Assembly: GCA_030016765.1 (NCBI GenBank)
Contig: JASEJS010000001.1
Span: 1 to 31,721, forward strand
Length of the DNA stretch: 31,721 nt
Reading direction: 5' to 3'
DNA from: Patescibacteria group bacterium
GTDB taxonomy: Bacteria; Patescibacteriota; Minisyncoccia; Minisyncoccales; JASEJS01
The notes under the pieces are model-generated. The model was not told the DNA's origin. It searched no databases and saw nothing but the letters and a program-made list of their open reading frames with translations. Numbering within the stretch: the stretch's first letter is position 1; every line of letters starts with the position of its first letter. A program made the translations under genes and the position numbers. Below are positions 5,790 through 31,721 of the stretch, one piece after another.

Positions 5790-6923
5790 TTATAAATTAG
5801 CTATTACTTTTTTTATAGAAAATATCATTTTTTTAATTTCTTTTTCAGTATAGTAATTTTGCAAAGGAAAATTAATGATTCTCTTTGCTGCTTCAACAGT
5901 ATTTGGAAATTCATTTAAATTAATTTGATATTCTCTCTGAGCTCTAGGATTTAAGATAATGGGTGTCTGCCAAATTCTAGTGCAAAAAATTTTATATTTT
6001 CGAAGGGTTTTAACAAAACAATCACGTTTACTCTTCAGATTCCCAGGTATAAGAGCCGAAAGGTAACAAAACACATTGTTTTTAGATTCTTGAACCTGAA
6101 AACCTAATTTTTTAAGTTCTTCTTGAAAATATAAAGCTAGTTCAATTCTTTTTTTCAAAGACTTTTCAAAATTTTCCAAAAATCTTTGGAATAAGTTTAG
6201 GGAAACTCGATTAAGAGCACTTGGCCATTCTCTTTTTTCTTTTCTAGGTATTTTAGGGGCTATTCTATTACCAAAAATTTTAAACAAAAGGGCAAAAATT
6301 GAAAAACAATTTAAGAAAGAAAGACAATCTCGAAAGTCAAAAAAAGTTTCAGCTAAATTTATCTGCCAATCTCTAGGACAGACCAAAAGTCCCCCTCTTA
6401 AGGTTGGCAAAAATTTATAAAGGCTGAAAAAGGCAGCCTCTCCAAGATTGCCAGCAAAAATTCCATTTTTTTGAAGACCAAAACTATGAGCACAATCTTC
6501 AATTATCAACAATCGATTATTCGTAATCTCTTTGATTCTTTGAATATCGCTCAAAAGGCCGTAAGTATGACAAATCAAGATAGCCTTGCTTTTAGAAGTA
6601 ATTTTCTTCTCAATCTCTTCGGTGTCAATATTAAAAGTTTCCAAATCAATATCTAAAAAAACAGGTCGAATATTGTATCTTTTAAAAATAGGATAAAAGA
6701 TATCGCAAATATAGGCAGGAAGAAGAACTTCAGAATTTTTTAAATTTAATTTTTCAATGATGATTTTGAAGGCCGATCTTCCCATATCAGTAAAAATAAA
6801 TTGCTTTCTTGGAAAATAGAAAGAAAGTTTCTGGATTAATTTTTCTAAATCGGGAGACCGAGCCAAAGATAAAATTGCCTTATCTAAATTGTTCAATTTT
6901 ATTTGGGGATGAACAAAATACAT
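5790..6923 (-). CDS. DegT/DnrJ/EryC1/StrS-family PLP-dependent sugar aminotransferase
   Basis: VLLPAYIC, CHTYG, IIEDCAHSFG, FFSLYKFLPTLRGG (PLP-binding Lys position), IINFPL. Confidence 0.9.
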   Translation of the reverse strand: MYFVHPQIKLNNLDKAILSLARSPDLEKLIQKLSFYFPRKQFIFTDMGRSAFKIIIEKLNLKNSEVLLPAYICDIFYPIFKRYNIRPVFLDIDLETFNIDTEEIEKKITSKSKAILICHTYGLLSDIQRIKEITNNRLLIIEDCAHSFGLQKNGIFAGNLGEAAFFSLYKFLPTLRGGLLVCPRDWQINLAETFFDFRDCLSFLNCFSIFALLFKIFGNRIAPKIPRKEKREWPSALNRVSLNLFQRFLENFEKSLKKRIELALYFQEELKKLGFQVQESKNNVFCYLSALIPGNLKSKRDCFVKTLRKYKIFCTRIWQTPIILNPRAQREYQINLNEFPNTVEAAKRIINFPLQNYYTEKEIKKMIFSIKKVIANL

Positions 6924-15101: not shown

Positions 15102-15154
15102 AAAAGTTAATTTGATCCAGAAAGAGCACTAAAAAAAGAACGGACCAAATTCAC

Positions 15155-15184
15155 CAACTTAAGCAACGGCCGTTTATCGACTTG
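15155..15184. repeat. 30-bp palindromic element, copy 1
   Basis: CAACTT aagc AACGGCCGTT tatc GACTTG, 6 nt beyond the PaaX-like stop. Confidence 0.9.
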
Positions 15185-15190
15185 AAAGAT

Positions 15191-15950
15191 TTAAAGTTTT
15201 TTGTCTTTAAGGTATTTCTTTATGAGTTGATGAGCTTTTATTCCCTGCCAATTGTTTGGCAAAAGTTCTAAAGGTAATTGAGGATCTTTTCTTAAAATGT
15301 TGAAATATTTAAACAGAAGCCAAAATTTCTCCTCTTTCCCAGCTTCTTGCCATTGATCAATAAATTTAATATAAGATCGATTTATTTTCTCTAATTTCCA
15401 AATTCGATTGGCTAAAACTTTTGAGGTTTCCTTTCCCAATTTATCAGTCTGAGCCAAAATTACAAAATCTTGAAGCTGATAAAATTTAATAATCTCTTCC
15501 ACATTTCCTAAATAATTTACTGCCGAAATCCAGATGCTTTGTTGGAGCTGACCAAAACCCAATTTTTTTAAATTTTCTCTTAAGATATCTCTTTTTCTGC
15601 GCATTTTTTCTGGAATATCAAAAACAGCTAAATACCATTGACCATCCCAATGCTTTGGCGGAAAAAATTGAGGAATAAGACGAAAGATTCTTTCCTTTCC
15701 TTCTTTGGTTAAGGTAAAATCTTCTTTAATCCATCCTCGTTGTTTTCCTCGATAGATTGCGTCCCTTATTATTCTATCTTTATTAGTAAATACTAACTTA
15801 TCTAATTTAGCGAAGAGACCTCTCATTGAGTAATTTCCTGAAAGGCCAATTTCTCCCATCATTGCTAAAGTAAATAAGACCAGATCAATAGGGGGTAGCT
15901 AAAATTTCACAGCTAATTTTTAAAATTTTCTCTCTCAATTCTCTTTTCAT
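15191..15950 (-). pseudogene. PaaX-like transcriptional regulator (Cas2-like central fold), +1 frameshift in G5 run 15891-15895
   Basis: WDGQWYLAVFDIPE...LKKLGFGQLQQSIWIS and DPQLPLELLPNNWQG motifs; ATG 15950 (MKRELREKILKISCEILATP) joins the 15191..15862 frame if one base is removed, giving 252 aa; a 223-aa product from ATG 15862 remains possible. Confidence 0.78.
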
Positions 15951-15964
15951 ATCCCAAAATCTAT

Positions 15965-15994
15965 CAACTTAACAAACGGCCGTTTGCTAAGTTA
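15965..15994. repeat. 30-bp palindromic element, copy 2, over the PaaX-like promoter
   Basis: CAACTT aaca AACGGCCGTT tgct AAGTTA; adjacent to minus-strand TGa+TAGATT (15966-15958). Confidence 0.9.
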
Positions 15995-16016
15995 GTAAAT
16001 TATTATTTTAAGAATG

Positions 16017-25574: not shown

Positions 25575-26282
25575 TTATTTATTTTGACTCAAAATCCAGA
25601 TTTTTTCCAGGGCTTCAGAATACTTTCCAGCCTGATAAAGTTCTTTCGCCTCTTCTAAAATTTTTTGATCTTCTTCAGAAAGGGTTCTTTTTTCTAAGTC
25701 TTCGATGAGGACTTCGGCTGGAGTTTTATATAATCCTTGAACAGAATCGCCTTCTTTTTCAGAATCTATTTTTGTTGCCAAAACTTTTTCTACTTTTTGT
25801 TTATTTTCTTCCAATTTTTTAATTTCAACTACTACCTCTTTAGCTTTTTCAGGTTCTTTTATTTTCTCAAGGCTCTTGGCAGCTTCTGAAACATTAGTTT
25901 GATATTCTTCAACCGCTGCTGGTAATTTCCTTACCTGATTGGTTTCAGCGATTTCTGCCAATTCTTCTAATCTTTTATTAGTTAATTCTAATTGGACTTT
26001 TGGTTTTTCTGCTTCAGGAACAAAAACTGCCTGGCTCTTTTCTGTAATCTTTTTGATTGGATATAAAAAATCACCAGGTAGAGAATTTTGGCTAAAAGCG
26101 AAAAGGCCGAAAAGAATTAAAACACTAATTAAGCCAGCTTTAGCTGGCTTGAAAAACGGGAAAAATAATACTTTTGGCTCCTCACCCAAAATCTGGCTTT
26201 TAGTCAAAGCAACCCAATCTGAGCTGGGCTTAATTTGTCGCAGTTTCCGAATTTTATTAACTAACTCGGCTTCAGTCATCAC
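25575..26282 (-). CDS. DUF5667-type membrane-anchored putative anti-sigma factor
   Basis: N-terminal IRKLRQIKPSSDW, one TM segment, SQNSLPGDFLYPIKKITEK, RLEEL; downstream of an ECF sigma; ATG 26279 possible. Confidence 0.75.
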   Translation of the reverse strand: MMTEAELVNKIRKLRQIKPSSDWVALTKSQILGEEPKVLFFPFFKPAKAGLISVLILFGLFAFSQNSLPGDFLYPIKKITEKSQAVFVPEAEKPKVQLELTNKRLEELAEIAETNQVRKLPAAVEEYQTNVSEAAKSLEKIKEPEKAKEVVVEIKKLEENKQKVEKVLATKIDSEKEGDSVQGLYKTPAEVLIEDLEKRTLSEEDQKILEEAKELYQAGKYSEALEKIWILSQNK

Positions 26283-26341
26283 TATAACTATGACGAAAAA
26301 CTCCCCAAAATATTACACTAATAAAGGAAAAATAAATTCAC

Positions 26342-26371
26342 CAACTTTATCAACGGCCGTTTGCCAAGTTG
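26342..26371. repeat. 30-bp palindromic element, copy 3
   Basis: CAACTT tatc AACGGCCGTT tgcc AAGTTG; symmetry extends to ATTCA...TGAAT (26336-26377). Confidence 0.9.
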
Positions 26372-26407
26372 ATGAATATTTAAAGAGGAATACCTCTACT
26401 CAAACTC

Positions 26408-26450
26408 TACTCGAAACCCGACGTTGAGTATTCGAAACCCGCGTTGAGTA
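26408..26450. repeat. Two overlapping copies of a 22-23 bp hairpin element
   Basis: TACTCGAAACCCGACGTTGAGTA (26408-26430) and TATTCGAAACCCGCGTTGAGTA (26429-26450); partial copy at 26397-26405. Confidence 0.85.
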
Positions 26451-26458
26451 AACTAGGC

Positions 26459-26992
26459 TTAAACATCTTGATTGAGTTTATTTTTTAAAATTTTCAAGGC
26501 TCGATGGAGCATTACCCTCGCTGTCTCTTCGGATTTATTTAACATTTTAGCTATTTCAGAGATAGAAAGGTCGTCTAAGTAGTGCCAAATAATTACATTC
26601 TGATATTCTTCTTTGAGATTAGCCAAAGCGGTTTTAATATTCTCAACCTCTGAGTTTACTGCTGCTTTTTCCTCTAAATTTGTTTTCGGATCAATAATTT
26701 TCACTTGGTCAGCTGAAATTATCTGGGTTTTACCCTTTTTTCGATAATAATCAATAACTAAATTCCGGGCAATTTGATATAAAAAAGCCTGGAGATTTTC
26801 AATTTCTTTTTGATTTTTGATTTTTGATTTTTGATTTTTATAGGCCTCCCAGCCCTTTAAAAAAGTTTCTGAAGTTAAATCTTCAGCTATTTCTTGGGAA
26901 TTGACCTTTAAAAAAATAAAACGATATATTTTATCTATATACTGATCGTAAATTTTGCCAAATTCTTTTCTCCAGCGATTTGTCATAAGCAC
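26459..26992 (-). CDS. ECF-type RNA polymerase sigma factor
   Basis: IYDQYIDKIYRFIFLKVNSQEIAEDLTSETFLKGW, FLYQIARNLVIDYYRK, LSISEIAKMLNKSEETARVMLHRALKIL; ATG 26986 likely. Confidence 0.93.
   Translation of the reverse strand: MLMTNRWRKEFGKIYDQYIDKIYRFIFLKVNSQEIAEDLTSETFLKGWEAYKNQKSKIKNQKEIENLQAFLYQIARNLVIDYYRKKGKTQIISADQVKIIDPKTNLEEKAAVNSEVENIKTALANLKEEYQNVIIWHYLDDLSISEIAKMLNKSEETARVMLHRALKILKNKLNQDV
26807..26834. repeat. Perfect (TTTTTGA)4 array inside the ECF sigma gene
   Basis: Four exact units; encodes KNQKSKIKNQK within sigma region 2. Confidence 0.95.
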
Positions 26993-27022
26993 TCGCCTAA
27001 TTACAACTAAAAATAATTTGAC

Positions 27023-27697
27023 CTAGGACAATGTCCTACCTTTATTCGTAATCGGCTTTGATTCGTAATTTGGAGGAAGCTGATAAAAGGTTTCATTTTT
27101 CTCTCCTATTCTCTCAATTAATCCCTGCTTAACCAATTGCTTAAAGTCTCTTCTCAGAGTTCTTTTAGTTACTTCAGGAAAAATTTCCTTAACTTCCCAA
27201 ATCTGAACTTTGCCTTTCTTTTTTAGAAAATCCAATATTTTCTCTTGCCGAGTATTTTTTTGAATGCCAACTGAGAAATTTCTCTGAAAAGATTCTCCTA
27301 ATCCTTCTTGAGCAAATATCTTCTCTCTTGAGATTTCAGCTACCTCCTTTATTCTCTCTCTATGAAATTTGACCTCATCAAGCTTTTTTAATTCTTTTCT
27401 TATTTTACCATATTCTTCTTGGATCTCAGAAATCTTAGAAGGACTTACCCAATTTTGTTTTTTAGCTAATTCAAAAAAGCTATCAAGAATTTCTAAATTT
27501 TTTGAAATTTCTGGATTTTGCTCTTTATAAAAATTAACTAAAATTTCATCGGCCAATTCCCTCATTTTATATCTCAAAGGCTCCTTTTTAGGGAAAAGCA
27601 AAGTAAGGTGATAAAGATTGTTGGTAAGTTGAATAAGCAACTCCTTATTAAGGAGGGATGGGTTGTTTATTTGGGTGGCGGGTAAATTGGAGTTCAT
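27023..27697 (-). CDS. Four-helix-bundle-like N-terminus fused to DeoR-type winged HTH
   Basis: LIQLTNNLYHLTLLFPKKEPLRYKMRELADEIL...FELAKKQNW; RQEKILDFLKKKGKVQIWEVKEIFPEVTKRTLRRDFKQLVKQGLIERIG. Confidence 0.8.
   Translation of the reverse strand: MNSNLPATQINNPSLLNKELLIQLTNNLYHLTLLFPKKEPLRYKMRELADEILVNFYKEQNPEISKNLEILDSFFELAKKQNWVSPSKISEIQEEYGKIRKELKKLDEVKFHRERIKEVAEISREKIFAQEGLGESFQRNFSVGIQKNTRQEKILDFLKKKGKVQIWEVKEIFPEVTKRTLRRDFKQLVKQGLIERIGEKNETFYQLPPNYESKPITNKGRTLS
27024..27038. promoter_or_regulatory. 15-bp perfect palindrome, candidate operator upstream of the sigma gene
   Basis: TAGGACA-a-TGTCCTA overlapping the last codons of the DeoR-HTH gene. Confidence 0.5.
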
Positions 27698-27701
27698 AAT
27701 T

Positions 27702-30700
27702 TTATTCCCAAGTTAAATCATGGCTGGCAAAAAACTTTAAATCCTCTCCTTCATAATAGATAAAGAGATATCCTTTTTTGGGTTGATTGGTTTTAATTCC
27801 AGAAATTATGGGATAAAAGGACCAGAGAGAATTAGGGAAATTCTGGTCATTAATTGCCTCTAAACTTTCAATTGATTGCCATGCATCTGTATATTTTCTG
27901 AGATAAATATGCCATTTGTCATCTGACTTAGAGAAACGAGAGCAGACTACATAAATATGGCCATTAGCATCTAAGGCAATTGAAGGAAAGGCTATGGTAG
28001 TGTCAATGTCTGATTCCAAAATCTGGTATCTTTCACTCCAAGAATTAGTATACTTTTTATATGAAATATGGCAACCACACTGCTCCTCCCAAACCACATG
28101 CAAATGACCATCCTTATCTATAGCAATTGAAGCTCTAGACCCGTTACCCAATTCTTCAGAGCTTGTGCTTGTTTGCCTCCAATATTTAATTTTAAGTGAA
28201 AGTGACTCACGCCCTACATCACTACACCAAACCAAATGAATATTGTCTTCACTATCAATAGCCATTGAAAAATGACCTATCCCTCTTCCACCACCAACCG
28301 GTAAATCTATTTCCTCAAAATAACTCAAATTGTTGTTATATTTTCGATATCGAGGCTTAGGACAAGGAAAAGAACCTAATTCGTGACTAGAAGAACATAA
28401 TTTTTTATCCACCCAAACCAGGTGGATATTATCAGCAGAATCTAAGGCAATTATCGGACTTTCTTGATCCCAATTCTCATTATCTGTGAGATTTTTAATT
28501 TCCGACCAAGTTCCATTATATCTCCGATAGCGGATTTGATAAGGACCATTAGCTGAAATTTTTCCCATCCAAACTAAATGAAGATTATCATTTGAATCAA
28601 TGGCAATTGAAGGATATATTTGGTTATAGCTGGATTCAGAAGTTATTACTTCTTTTGTCCAACTTTTTCCTTCATCAATTGATTTAGCCAAAAAGACATT
28701 ATATATTCCTTCAATTTGTTTAGCATAAACCACATATAAATTTCCATTTGAGGCCCTAACCATTTTTCTACCCTCGGTTCCAGGCGGTAAAGAGGGATCT
28801 AAGGTAAAGCCACTCTCAATAGTACTAATAGTTGCTGTTTGATAGGAAATAATATCAGAAAGTAAAGAATAATGCCAGCCATCAAAAGCTTCAATGCCAA
28901 AATGATAAGTAGAATTGTAATCAAGGTTAGAAATAGTCAGGGTAGTGGCTGAGGTAGTAGCAGAGAAAGTGGAAGAAGAATTTAAATTATCTTCAGTAAT
29001 CTCCTCTTTTGAATAATAAATTTGGTAAGAGAGATTTTCTGGAGGAGTATCTGGGTCAGTAGTAGTTGACCAAGTTAAAACTACTTTATTATTTTCTGAA
29101 TTTTCCTCATCTATTTTGAAATCAGAAACTTTTTCTGGTCGGAAAATGTCGGCTTTTTCTCCTTTTGAATTTTCCGGCAAGGGAATTTTGAGCTCAAAAT
29201 CAGTTGAATTGTTATCATCATCAATATAAAAACCTTCTTTGTTTTTCTTTCTTTGCAATGATTTTTCGACTAAATCACTTTCCTTAAACAAAAATGAACT
29301 TCCTTCAAAAACTAAAGTACTAGTTGAATTTTCTTCTCTCCAGCTGAAAAGGTCAATTTTGCATCCAATAGCCGCCTCAGTGGTGCTAGCTGAAGGATTG
29401 CAAGAAAAAATGCCAATGGCTCCAGTTTTATTATTTAGATTAGTGGAAACAGAAGGTTGCCAATCTGGTTCGGGATAACCTTCTTCAACTGAGTAATCTT
29501 TTAAACCAATAAGAAAATAAGTTGAGGAAGCTATAGTTGTAGTTGGAAACTGTATATTTATCCGCCAGGGATTATTCCAATCATGCTTCGCCGGAAAATA
29601 ACTCAAATACCAACCGGCAGTAGAAACAGATTGATCAGTTGGATTATAAAGCTCTACAAATTCATTCTTTTTAATTTGAACTTCAGAGATGATTACATTT
29701 TGGGCTAATTGGTGAGCCTTTACTTCAATTGTGCTGGTGGTGGTGCTGGTTGCTCCCTGATTATCTTGCACTACAAGTCGAACCAAATACTCGAAACCCG
29801 ACGTCGAGTAAGAATGAGCAGTTGTGGCCTGAGTAGTAGTGGTGGAATTACCATCGCCGAAATCCCAGATGTAGCCGGTAATGGTTCCATCTCGGTCAAT
29901 AGATGAAGAGGCATCAAAAAAAATTTCATCACCAATAAATGGATTTTGAGGAGAGAAAGTAAAAGAGGCAATCGGCAGTTGATTCTCTGGCTCCACTTTT
30001 GGTTTATTTTTTGCCTTAGGGGTTGGCTCCTGAATTTCAAAATCTTCTCTATTGTTATCAGTATCAATATAACTTTCGCTAGTAGTGGACCATTTTCTGC
30101 CTATACTTTCGCCAGCTTTAGGATTTGAAGTGGTGGCAGTTTCATAATCTTGAGCCTCTCCCCAGCTAACTTTATCAACAACCTCTCCATTTGGATTTTT
30201 TAAGTAAAGAGTATTATCTGAAGTAAGAGGGTGGGTAGTGGTAGCATCAGCTGAAAAGGTAGAGGAGGCATTGGCAATCAGAAAATAATCATGTTTTTTA
30301 ATTATTTTGCCAGAAAATAAATTTTTTGGAGCATAAGAGGAAAAATCGCTACCAGTTTTTGTTTTCCTCTGAAGGTACCAATTAGTCAAATCAACATCTT
30401 CTGAATTTGGATTATAAAGCTCAACAAAATCATCTTTTTCACTGGTCTGGCTTTCAATTTGAATTTCGGAGATTAAAATTTTTAGATAAGAAGGGGTTGG
30501 CGGTTCCTCGGGTGGTGGGGAAGACACTCCCCCTCCGCCACCATAATATTCAACATATCCTCCGCTATTTTCTGCTTTTGGTGTGCCTCCTGGATTAGCG
30601 CTGGTTTGCCAACTCAAATCATTCCTCCTTTCTGCTGTTCTTTTTGAATTATTATCCCCAGCTAGCCAATTAGGAGAGGCTATGACTTCATCTTGAAGCT

Positions 30701-31721
30701 GGCAATTTTCATCAAAAAGATAAAGGGCTTCATCAGTGTTTTTAAGAGAGCCAGTATAAATTAAATCAGCTGCTACTCCCGGCACTGTTTCATCATCGCT
30801 CCTCTCTAAAAGAAAAAACCCATTAGCCAACACCCGATTTTGGCTATTAAAAATTATTTTAATTTGTTGGTCTTTATCTAAAAGTTGCCAACCTGCTAAA
30901 TTGATTTCTGTTCCTGAAATGTTTTTAAGCTCTATCCATTCATTATTAGAGCTTTCTCCTGTTCCCATCCAAGCCACTTCATTAATAATAATTTTATTTC
31001 TAATGGGATAACTTCCGGTTATTCTCTCACAAAATTTCTGTCCTACTTCTTGTCCTACCTCTTCTGACTCCTTTTCTTTCACTGTTTTTTCTGATTCTTC
31101 TGGCTCTGTTTCTTCTTTTCCCTCAGTTTTTGATGTTTCTTCTGAGATAGACGAGGTCGCAGTTTCAACTAATTTAGCCACCTTTGCGCTTAAAATATCA
31201 ACTCTTTCTGAAATATCATCCAGCCTTTCTTGAACTTCCTCTAAGCTAAGAGGTCTCTCCCTTCCTATGCCAGGAGTTTGCGGAGCTTCGACCTTCCCAA
31301 TTTCTTCTATTTTTTCTTCAACTAAAGGCGGCTCCTTCTCTATTTCTGGCGCCTTTTCTTCTATCGCCTTTTCCTTTGGCGCCTCAACCTTCTCTGGCGC
31401 CGGAGCAACCGCAGCCTTAAAAGGATTGAGCTGAAAAAGAACAGATTTTATTTGGGATAAAGCGCTTTCTACCGCATTTTCAACCTCTTGGTTAGCCTTT
31501 TTTACAAACCTCTCTATCTTTTCAATTTGTTTTACTAAATTCTCCCAAGCTAATTTTGCTTTCTCCAAAAGAGATGGTTTGGGCTCCTCTTTGACAAATT
31601 TATGAGTTTTAATAGCTGAAACAAGGGCTATTTTTATTTCTTCCCTGGCTTTTTGCTTACATTCTGCCTTCACTCCACCTGGCTCAATGCATTCACCCCA
31701 TTTCTCCCAAAGCTGAGCAAA
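27702..31721 (-). CDS. Large surface protein: 3 lamin-tail-like domains, PKD, FN3 and C-terminal beta-propeller; 5' end outside window
   Basis: IIINEVAW..EWIEL.N, ILISEIQI..DFVELYNP, VIISEVQI..EFVELYNP; WDFGDG PKD; VVLTWS...YHFGIEA FN3; repeats of SIAIDSxDxxHLVW and SIDEGKSW; frame open past GTG 31673 to window edge (FAQLWEKWGECIEPGG). Confidence 0.88.
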   Translation of the reverse strand, partial: FAQLWEKWGECIEPGGVKAECKQKAREEIKIALVSAIKTHKFVKEEPKPSLLEKAKLAWENLVKQIEKIERFVKKANQEVENAVESALSQIKSVLFQLNPFKAAVAPAPEKVEAPKEKAIEEKAPEIEKEPPLVEEKIEEIGKVEAPQTPGIGRERPLSLEEVQERLDDISERVDILSAKVAKLVETATSSISEETSKTEGKEETEPEESEKTVKEKESEEVGQEVGQKFCERITGSYPIRNKIIINEVAWMGTGESSNNEWIELKNISGTEINLAGWQLLDKDQQIKIIFNSQNRVLANGFFLLERSDDETVPGVAADLIYTGSLKNTDEALYLFDENCQLQDEVIASPNWLAGDNNSKRTAERRNDLSWQTSANPGGTPKAENSGGYVEYYGGGGGVSSPPPEEPPTPSYLKILISEIQIESQTSEKDDFVELYNPNSEDVDLTNWYLQRKTKTGSDFSSYAPKNLFSGKIIKKHDYFLIANASSTFSADATTTHPLTSDNTLYLKNPNGEVVDKVSWGEAQDYETATTSNPKAGESIGRKWSTTSESYIDTDNNREDFEIQEPTPKAKNKPKVEPENQLPIASFTFSPQNPFIGDEIFFDASSSIDRDGTITGYIWDFGDGNSTTTTQATTAHSYSTSGFEYLVRLVVQDNQGATSTTTSTIEVKAHQLAQNVIISEVQIKKNEFVELYNPTDQSVSTAGWYLSYFPAKHDWNNPWRINIQFPTTTIASSTYFLIGLKDYSVEEGYPEPDWQPSVSTNLNNKTGAIGIFSCNPSASTTEAAIGCKIDLFSWREENSTSTLVFEGSSFLFKESDLVEKSLQRKKNKEGFYIDDDNNSTDFELKIPLPENSKGEKADIFRPEKVSDFKIDEENSENNKVVLTWSTTTDPDTPPENLSYQIYYSKEEITEDNLNSSSTFSATTSATTLTISNLDYNSTYHFGIEAFDGWHYSLLSDIISYQTATISTIESGFTLDPSLPPGTEGRKMVRASNGNLYVVYAKQIEGIYNVFLAKSIDEGKSWTKEVITSESSYNQIYPSIAIDSNDNLHLVWMGKISANGPYQIRYRRYNGTWSEIKNLTDNENWDQESPIIALDSADNIHLVWVDKKLCSSSHELGSFPCPKPRYRKYNNNLSYFEEIDLPVGGGRGIGHFSMAIDSEDNIHLVWCSDVGRESLSLKIKYWRQTSTSSEELGNGSRASIAIDKDGHLHVVWEEQCGCHISYKKYTNSWSERYQILESDIDTTIAFPSIALDANGHIYVVCSRFSKSDDKWHIYLRKYTDAWQSIESLEAINDQNFPNSLWSFYPIISGIKTNQPKKGYLFIYYEGEDLKFFASHDLTWE
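29788..29810. repeat. 23-bp hairpin element inside the PKD domain
   Basis: TACTCGAAACCCGACGTCGAGTA, 22/23 identical to 26408..26430; encodes YSTSGFEY. Confidence 0.9.

Follow-up and report, generated by a model that had tools for sequence, protein, structure and literature searches.

How does the same 23-nucleotide sequence come to lie both in a spacer between genes and inside the coding sequence of a protein domain? The question is raised by the first 31,721 nucleotides of contig JASEJS010000001.1 of a Patescibacteria genome (GCA_030016765.1), a stretch referred to here as the window. An earlier note, made from the letters of this DNA alone, described the two sites and a degenerate tandem copy and proposed a tiny mobile or converting element that overwrites protein sequence. 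We consider it highly probable that the 23-mer is a repetitive extragenic palindromic (REP) hairpin of a system consisting of REP elements and a REP-associated tyrosine transposase (RAYT). This reading is preferred because inverted copies of the 23-mer flank a Y1/HUH transposase-like gene, because the best structural match of the encoded protein is the E. coli RAYT-REP complex, and because orthologs of the gene are flanked by hairpins of their own.

A 23-nucleotide hairpin in a spacer and in a PKD domain

Both copies of the 23-mer were found where the earlier note placed them, differing by one base (T or C at position 18), and the tandem copy and the in-frame reading inside a PKD domain held up as well. 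The sites and the genes around them are as follows.

26408..26430, minus strand: full REP copy, intergenic (sequence comparison, family search and hairpin covariation)
26429..26450, minus strand: degenerate tandem REP copy of 22 nt, with one base missing and one substitution (C3 to T), overlapping the full copy by a shared TA
26395..26405, minus strand: possible remnant of a third copy, with an arm-like TACTCAAACTC, abutting the full copy (weak, by eye only)
29788..29810, minus strand: coding REP copy, in frame in the PKD protein gene as YSTSGFEY (residues 638-645)
29721..29984, minus strand: PKD domain, residues 580-667 (PKD_4, E value 2e-16; homolog alignment)
27702..31721, minus strand: large surface-type protein gene with three LTD domains, PKD, fn3 and BNR-like domains (domain search; open reading frame [ORF] 5'-open at the window end)
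26459..26992, minus strand: extracytoplasmic function (ECF)-type sigma-70 gene; in gene direction, the full REP copy follows 28 nt after its stop codon
25575..26282, minus strand: DUF5667 gene, downstream of the REP-bearing spacer

The intergenic copy is located in the 176-nt spacer leading from the sigma factor gene to the DUF5667 gene, and its loop, read on the strand of these genes, is GTCGGGTT. The element has a 7-bp stem and a 9-nt loop; the stem is perfect in the coding copy and contains one G:T/A:C position in the intergenic copy. The coding copy falls on the HxYxxxGxY motif of the PKD domain. In 100 dinucleotide-preserving shuffles of the window, no match to the 23-mer was obtained, even with 3 mismatches allowed.

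A different palindrome of approximately 30 to 49 nt (CAACTT..AACGGCCGTT..AAGTTG) is present in three copies in the window (15147-15195, 15957-16005, and 26334-26382). The last of these shares the sigma/DUF5667 spacer and lies 26 nt from the REP copy, to whose family its sequence is unrelated.

A dispersed hairpin family with compensatory stem changes

The source genome (G000) comprises 754 kb at 33% GC in 105 contigs, the window being contig C7. A genome-wide search, which the earlier note had proposed as a check, recovered 11 copies when up to 3 mismatches were allowed and 13 when the limit was raised to 5, with 0 matches to a reversed-pattern control. The 13 copies are spread over 10 contigs; those on C11 and C17 have common flanks and may represent one locus assembled twice. 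Ten of them are intergenic, most lying 6 to 100 nt 3' of a stop codon or a tRNA gene, including that for tRNA-Val on contig C90, whose copy matches the PKD copy at 23/23 positions. The other three are in frame inside long ORFs encoding the PKD protein, YchF, and the isoleucyl-tRNA synthetase (IleRS). The orientation relative to the neighboring or containing gene is shared by 10 of the 12 copies to which one could be assigned. An exact-pattern scan of one genome per species gave zero matches, and a scan of metagenomes gave eight contigs that all have the same flanking sequence at the hairpin and so look like one shared locus.

Seven genomes and a single metagenome contig together supplied 26 copies for an analysis of covariation, in which 94.4% of the cells of the 7-bp stem were paired and both sides changed in six of the seven pairs. 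The covariation score was 0.586, compared with 0.295 in shuffles (0 of 500 reached 0.586), and controls in which the stem positions were slid scored far lower. The loop core, GTCGGGT, was almost invariant. These data bear on the possibility that a dimeric regulator, such as the neighboring DeoR-type helix-turn-helix protein or the sigma factor, uses the 7-N9-7 palindrome as its operator in double-stranded form. Inverted-repeat arms are indeed present, the window copy lies within a cluster of regulator genes, and some copies, including those on metagenome contigs, are found by eye 5 to 17 nt upstream of −35-like hexamers. However, arms that vary freely with compensation around a conserved, asymmetric center are the opposite of what an operator would show, and copies also occur in coding sequence, after tRNA genes, and on both sides of a Y1 nuclease gene. 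We therefore give the operator almost no credence. A tRNA T-arm relic, a DNA uptake sequence, and a CRISPR repeat were likewise considered and dropped on the basis of anatomy and copy number.

Another hairpin variant, with a stem of the form ..TCAAC/GTTGA.. and the loop CTCGGGT, occurs in one or a few copies in many genomes of different families (G050, G052, G076, G158, G172, and others). The source genome has two, at C43:11298-11320 and C96:2295-2317. One is intergenic, and the other is in frame in a 460-aa ORF that resembles the glycyl-tRNA synthetase (motifs, by eye), with a second partial copy adjoining it.

A RAYT-like gene between inverted copies of the repeat

The earlier note had also suggested looking for an associated nuclease. 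A search of the source genome with the Pfam family Y1_Tnp (PF01797) identified two genes.

G000 contig C101:5138-5866: RAYT-1, 242 aa, Y1/HUH transposase-like
G000 contig C5:2870-3643 (L028:1226-1997): RAYT-2 unit, 235 aa

RAYT-1 is bracketed by inverted copies of the 23-mer at C101:5096-5118, 19 nt before the ATG, and at 5876-5898, 9 nt after the stop codon, and a nested partial copy lies beside the upstream one. The histidines of the HUH motif (H94 and H96, forming HxH) and the catalytic tyrosine (Y154) are invariant in 16 sequences. The AlphaFold (AF2) model of RAYT-1 had a mean predicted local distance difference test (pLDDT) score of 88.7, and a Foldseek search with this model returned as its best PDB match 4ER8_A, the E. 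coli TnpA_REP-REP complex (PMC3479197), followed by the TnpA proteins of IS608, ISDra2, and IS200, with a probability of 1.00. Homologs are present in 196 of 401 genomes of the order. Nearly all of 14 inspected orthologs (49 to 70% identity) are flanked near their start and stop by an inverted pair of their own genome's hairpin; those in G392 and G171 have the same loop core with different stems.

RAYT-2 is 29% identical to RAYT-1, and the two are the only paralogs in the genome. It is bracketed by an inverted pair from an unrelated family of hairpins with a 10-bp stem, which has about seven copies in the genome, and it passes the PF01797 cut-off with 46.4 bits. No TnpB-type partner was found, as judged by zero PF07282 matches.

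Members of the 10-bp-stem family also occur in coding sequence: one copy is in frame within the coding sequence of RAYT-2 itself, and another, at C97:2937-2959, is in frame in a 699-aa PheT-like ORF (motifs, by eye). A perfect palindrome with a 10-bp stem (GGATAGGACA/TGTCCTATCC) lies on C101 (L029:1133-1178) just before the REP copies on the 5' side of RAYT-1, and it is itself preceded by related partial repeats.

The position of most intergenic copies just 3' of genes and tRNAs, in the transcribed orientation, could also mean that the hairpins are signals acting at the RNA level (terminators, mRNA-stabilizing stems, or processing sites) that were conserved for their function rather than spread by a transposase. 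Several stem mismatches are compatible with G:U pairing, and an RNA role has also been proposed for published REPs (PMC3733652). Against this, the stems are weak as naked DNA (−2 to −4 kcal/mol), and a T-run is missing in most copies. A terminator and promoter scan of the window spacer gave nothing above chance, with no terminator-like site in 26150-26550, and Rfam matched only tRNAs (the window region at a permissive threshold and 15 loci at the gathering threshold). Neither the inverted copies that bracket the Y1 transposase-like gene, here and in orthologs, nor the copies within coding sequence, one of them oppositely oriented, would be expected of such a signal. An RNA signal in place of a REP is thus unlikely, although an RNA role can coexist with REP identity.

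Copies in protein genes appear to replace rather than add codons

The presence of three copies in frame in protein genes suggests that this repeat family rewrites short protein loops. As far as can be judged from the aligned sequences, the coding copies appear to replace codons in variable loops with no added length.

In the PKD protein, 36 homologs read [YF][ST]TS[SG]-[DE]F at the REP site (for example YSTSS-EF and YSTSG-EF), and YSTSGVEY also occurs in a homologous domain; since these residues are nearly the same, the REP copy has barely changed the protein. One homolog with near-identical flanks uses other codons, has one codon fewer, and lacks REP-like nucleotides, so that a 24-nt patch and one further codon separate the two sequences. 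A second homolog has a distinct REP variant at the site, and 21 of its 23 positions agree with the YchF hairpin found on a metagenome contig. Because of these two homologs, the PKD copy looks like a patch of approximately 24 nt, plus one codon, that may have been converted to REP sequence at a native site that was already REP-like. The close fit of the peptide could reflect either microhomology-guided patch conversion or selection for the least disruptive sites, both of which are possible. The source genome contains no paralogous PKD domain, and the nearest genome (G401) has no ortholog of the PKD protein at the corresponding place, where a 663-aa protein without Pfam domains is encoded.

The YchF copy of the source genome also reads YSTSGFEY, in frame. 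An insertion of eight codons was considered and rejected: the protein has 344 aa in G000 and 342 to 347 aa in most of the orthologs listed, and its 344 aa with or without the G000 type of hairpin indicate that nothing was added. In orthologs the site reads YSTSGVDY, YPTSGVGY, or YSTPGVDY (the last in two tandem copies in one contig), and their DNA is hairpin-like. The YchF of G401 (78% identity) has, codon for codon at the same site, a hairpin that shares the loop but not the stem; the two stems differ by two compensatory pair changes that also alter amino acids (YSTSGFEY versus GLRSGFKH). The G401 hairpin belongs to a family of 10 copies in that genome (control, 1), which is also represented in a linker of DprA, where the G000 ortholog has none. 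The hairpin in the YchF loop had further copies in its own genome in three of the five genomes tested (G000, G401, and G306). In G306 there are four such copies, and the YchF hairpin is of a type different from that flanking the RAYT-1 ortholog. This mismatch, together with the own-genome copies in three of five genomes, favors a hot spot of recurrent replacement over gradual in-place change.

A relative known from a metagenome (L025:1368-1390 and L025:10634-10692) carries its own type of hairpin in frame in UvrC and two tandem copies in YchF. The tandem copies are 12 codons apart, and this YchF is lengthened to 355 aa.

The third coding copy lies in the opposite orientation in the anticodon-binding domain of IleRS, where it reads YSKPDIEY in a hypervariable loop delimited by FLSEEIY and SVHLEDWP. 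In an ortholog with 77% identity, the same loop holds an unrelated hairpin with an 8-bp stem, which is of the type that flanks the RAYT orthologs in G026 and G013. The IleRS of the source genome (C84:6013-9501; L023:414-3902, minus strand) contains in addition a His_Phos_1 histidine-phosphatase domain inserted in the middle of the synthetase, an architecture present in most of the Patescibacteria relatives listed.

The peptides at these sites raise the question of whether the coding copies are simply native sequence selected as YSTSG.EY, with the likeness to the repeat due to coincidence or codon choice, as the PKD homologs and YchF orthologs listed above, with their similar residues, would allow. 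However, the PKD copy is identical over its whole length to a noncoding copy, and it uses ACG and TCG, two G-ending codons that are expected to be uncommon at 33% GC. In a homolog, nearly the same peptide is encoded by other codons, the YchF stem changes between genomes are at once compensatory and amino acid changing, and the same 23-mer occurs in unrelated proteins. A purely native origin of the coding copies is therefore very improbable. The earlier note had regarded its idea as refutable if no further copies existed and orthologous PKD domains had the same residues; 13 copies exist, and homologous PKD domains do have nearly the same residues.

Comparison of sites with and without the repeat thus pointed to sequence that was rewritten and not lengthened, as in YchF and in the PKD patch, and no target duplication was seen. 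Target duplication is not expected of Y1 transposases of the IS200/IS605 type. No clean empty site was found for the intergenic copy of the window in the nearest genome, where the spacer is unrelated and an extra gene is inserted.

In that genome the sigma/DUF5667 spacer (contig C4; L089:974-1069) has tandem repeats with a unit of about 15 nt in place of the REPs, the extra gene encodes 136 aa, and only the last 25 nt or so before the DUF5667 start are conserved with G000. In another relative, the FtsK gene (L027:13104-16682) contains an intein with a LAGLIDADG endonuclease domain (precomputed Pfam matches).

Points that weigh against a REP/RAYT system

Several observations argue against assigning the 23-mer to a REP/RAYT system. 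For a REP family, 13 copies are few, and two of these may be one locus. No tetranucleotide is common to the flanks of the 13, and the stem has no GTAG head at its foot; CGTC occurs only within the loop region of some copies and is variable there (TGTC, AGTC). Neither REP doublets forming hairpins (REPINs) nor arrays of bacterial interspersed mosaic elements (BIMEs) were found among the copies, which are single or in direct tandem or nested partial arrangement. RAYT-1 reaches 20.3 bits on PF01797, where the cut-off is 23, and has no NCBIfam match, and RAYT-2 reaches 47.9 bits on REP_Tyr_transpos (NF047646), where the cut-off is 80. In G401 the hairpin family is present and a RAYT-1 ortholog was not found, in an assembly that is fragmented. 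The YchF hairpin is a singleton in G045 and G175, and random insertion does not account for how closely the peptide encoded by the REP fits the native PKD motif. The source genome, finally, is metagenome assembled, in its 105 contigs, with 3.2% contamination, and movement was not observed: no strain pair with an occupied site and a clean empty one was found.

Of the proposal in the earlier note, the genome-wide family, the nuclease gene, and coding sites that appear to have been rewritten are borne out. The element itself, as the REP of a REP/RAYT system, is not autonomous, and neither movement nor conversion was caught directly.

A possible route for the rewriting of protein loops

RAYT-1 is predicted to bind the folded hairpin in single-stranded DNA, reading its loop. 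By analogy with Y1 enzymes of the IS200/IS605 type, it may then cut and rejoin DNA beside the hairpin without target duplication. New copies would land at or beside resident hairpins, which would explain the tandem and nested copies seen at 26395-26450, at RAYT-1, and in one YchF ortholog, and would also explain why fixed loops are rewritten by whichever family is active. In coding sequence, selection would retain only in-frame, stop-free copies in tolerant loops, and in the PKD domain a short patch may have been converted to REP sequence at a similar native site.

We tentatively suggest, at somewhat less than even likelihood, that the loops in essential genes (YchF and IleRS, and DprA in relatives) are long-lived landing pads. 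These would be repeatedly overwritten without change of length by the active REP family, via RAYT-dependent homing to the resident hairpin or via short-patch conversion. If so, a selfish or domesticated repeat would determine a few codons in housekeeping and surface proteins, and these codons would turn over with it. Even for E. coli and Pseudomonas there is, to our knowledge, no settled account of how REPs spread and remain uniform. In the present case the hairpins lie at alignable, codon-resolved positions of universal genes across hundreds of small genomes, and each of these genomes has a hairpin type, and often a RAYT, of its own. This provides a natural series of replace-in-place events that could reveal target choice, patch length, and the specificity between enzyme and hairpin. 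The finding that several residues in essential and surface proteins can be dictated by a repeat family is relevant to the annotation and alignment of Patescibacteria proteins and to how variation in their surface proteins is read.

Comparison with known systems

The hairpins resemble intrinsic terminators in following shortly after stop codons and tRNA genes, but they differ in that the stem is weak and AT-rich, most copies have no T-run, some lie inside genes, and the scan found no terminator-like site. With IS200/IS605 elements such as IS608 and ISDra2, the system shares the Y1/HUH fold and the reading of DNA hairpins. In contrast to those elements, the enzyme gene is not repeated (the two paralogs are 29% identical), the TnpB-type partner was not found, and the hairpins are dispersed alone.

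Palindromic repeats in frame inside known proteins, including the products of housekeeping and repair genes, and a preference for positions 3' of genes have been described (Di Nocera 2013, PMC3733652). The in-frame palindromes in YchF, IleRS, and the PKD protein, and in DprA and UvrC of relatives, are similar to these intragenic REPs and to Rickettsia palindromic elements (RPEs). They differ in that only eight codons are involved, which in YchF replace others at unchanged length, and in that the same loop has different hairpin types across genomes. RPE-1 elements are much longer, at about 100 to 150 bp.

REP/RAYT systems have been named REPtrons (Nunvar 2010, PMC2817692). The family described here departs from them in the missing GTAG head, the conserved part being the loop core GTCGGGT, and in its number of approximately 13 hairpins, enough to make a family but far short of the more than 100 copies usual in classical REPs (PMC2817692). 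Its hairpins are single and not arranged as REPIN doublets or BIMEs, its protein of about 240 aa has a C-terminal extension and scores below curated family cut-offs, and its host is a Patescibacteria genome. Intragenic REPs have already been published, whereas no report of REP/RAYT systems or REPINs in Patescibacteria, nor of REPs in the candidate phyla radiation, was found in a limited search of the literature. The family has the following in common with REP/RAYT systems: the palindromic repeat is short (23 nt, within the 20 to 40 nt of REPs) and scattered mainly on the 3' side of genes, a Y1/HUH gene lies between two inverted copies of it, hairpin and enzyme differ together between genomes, and the fold of the enzyme is matched best by the RAYT of E. 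coli.

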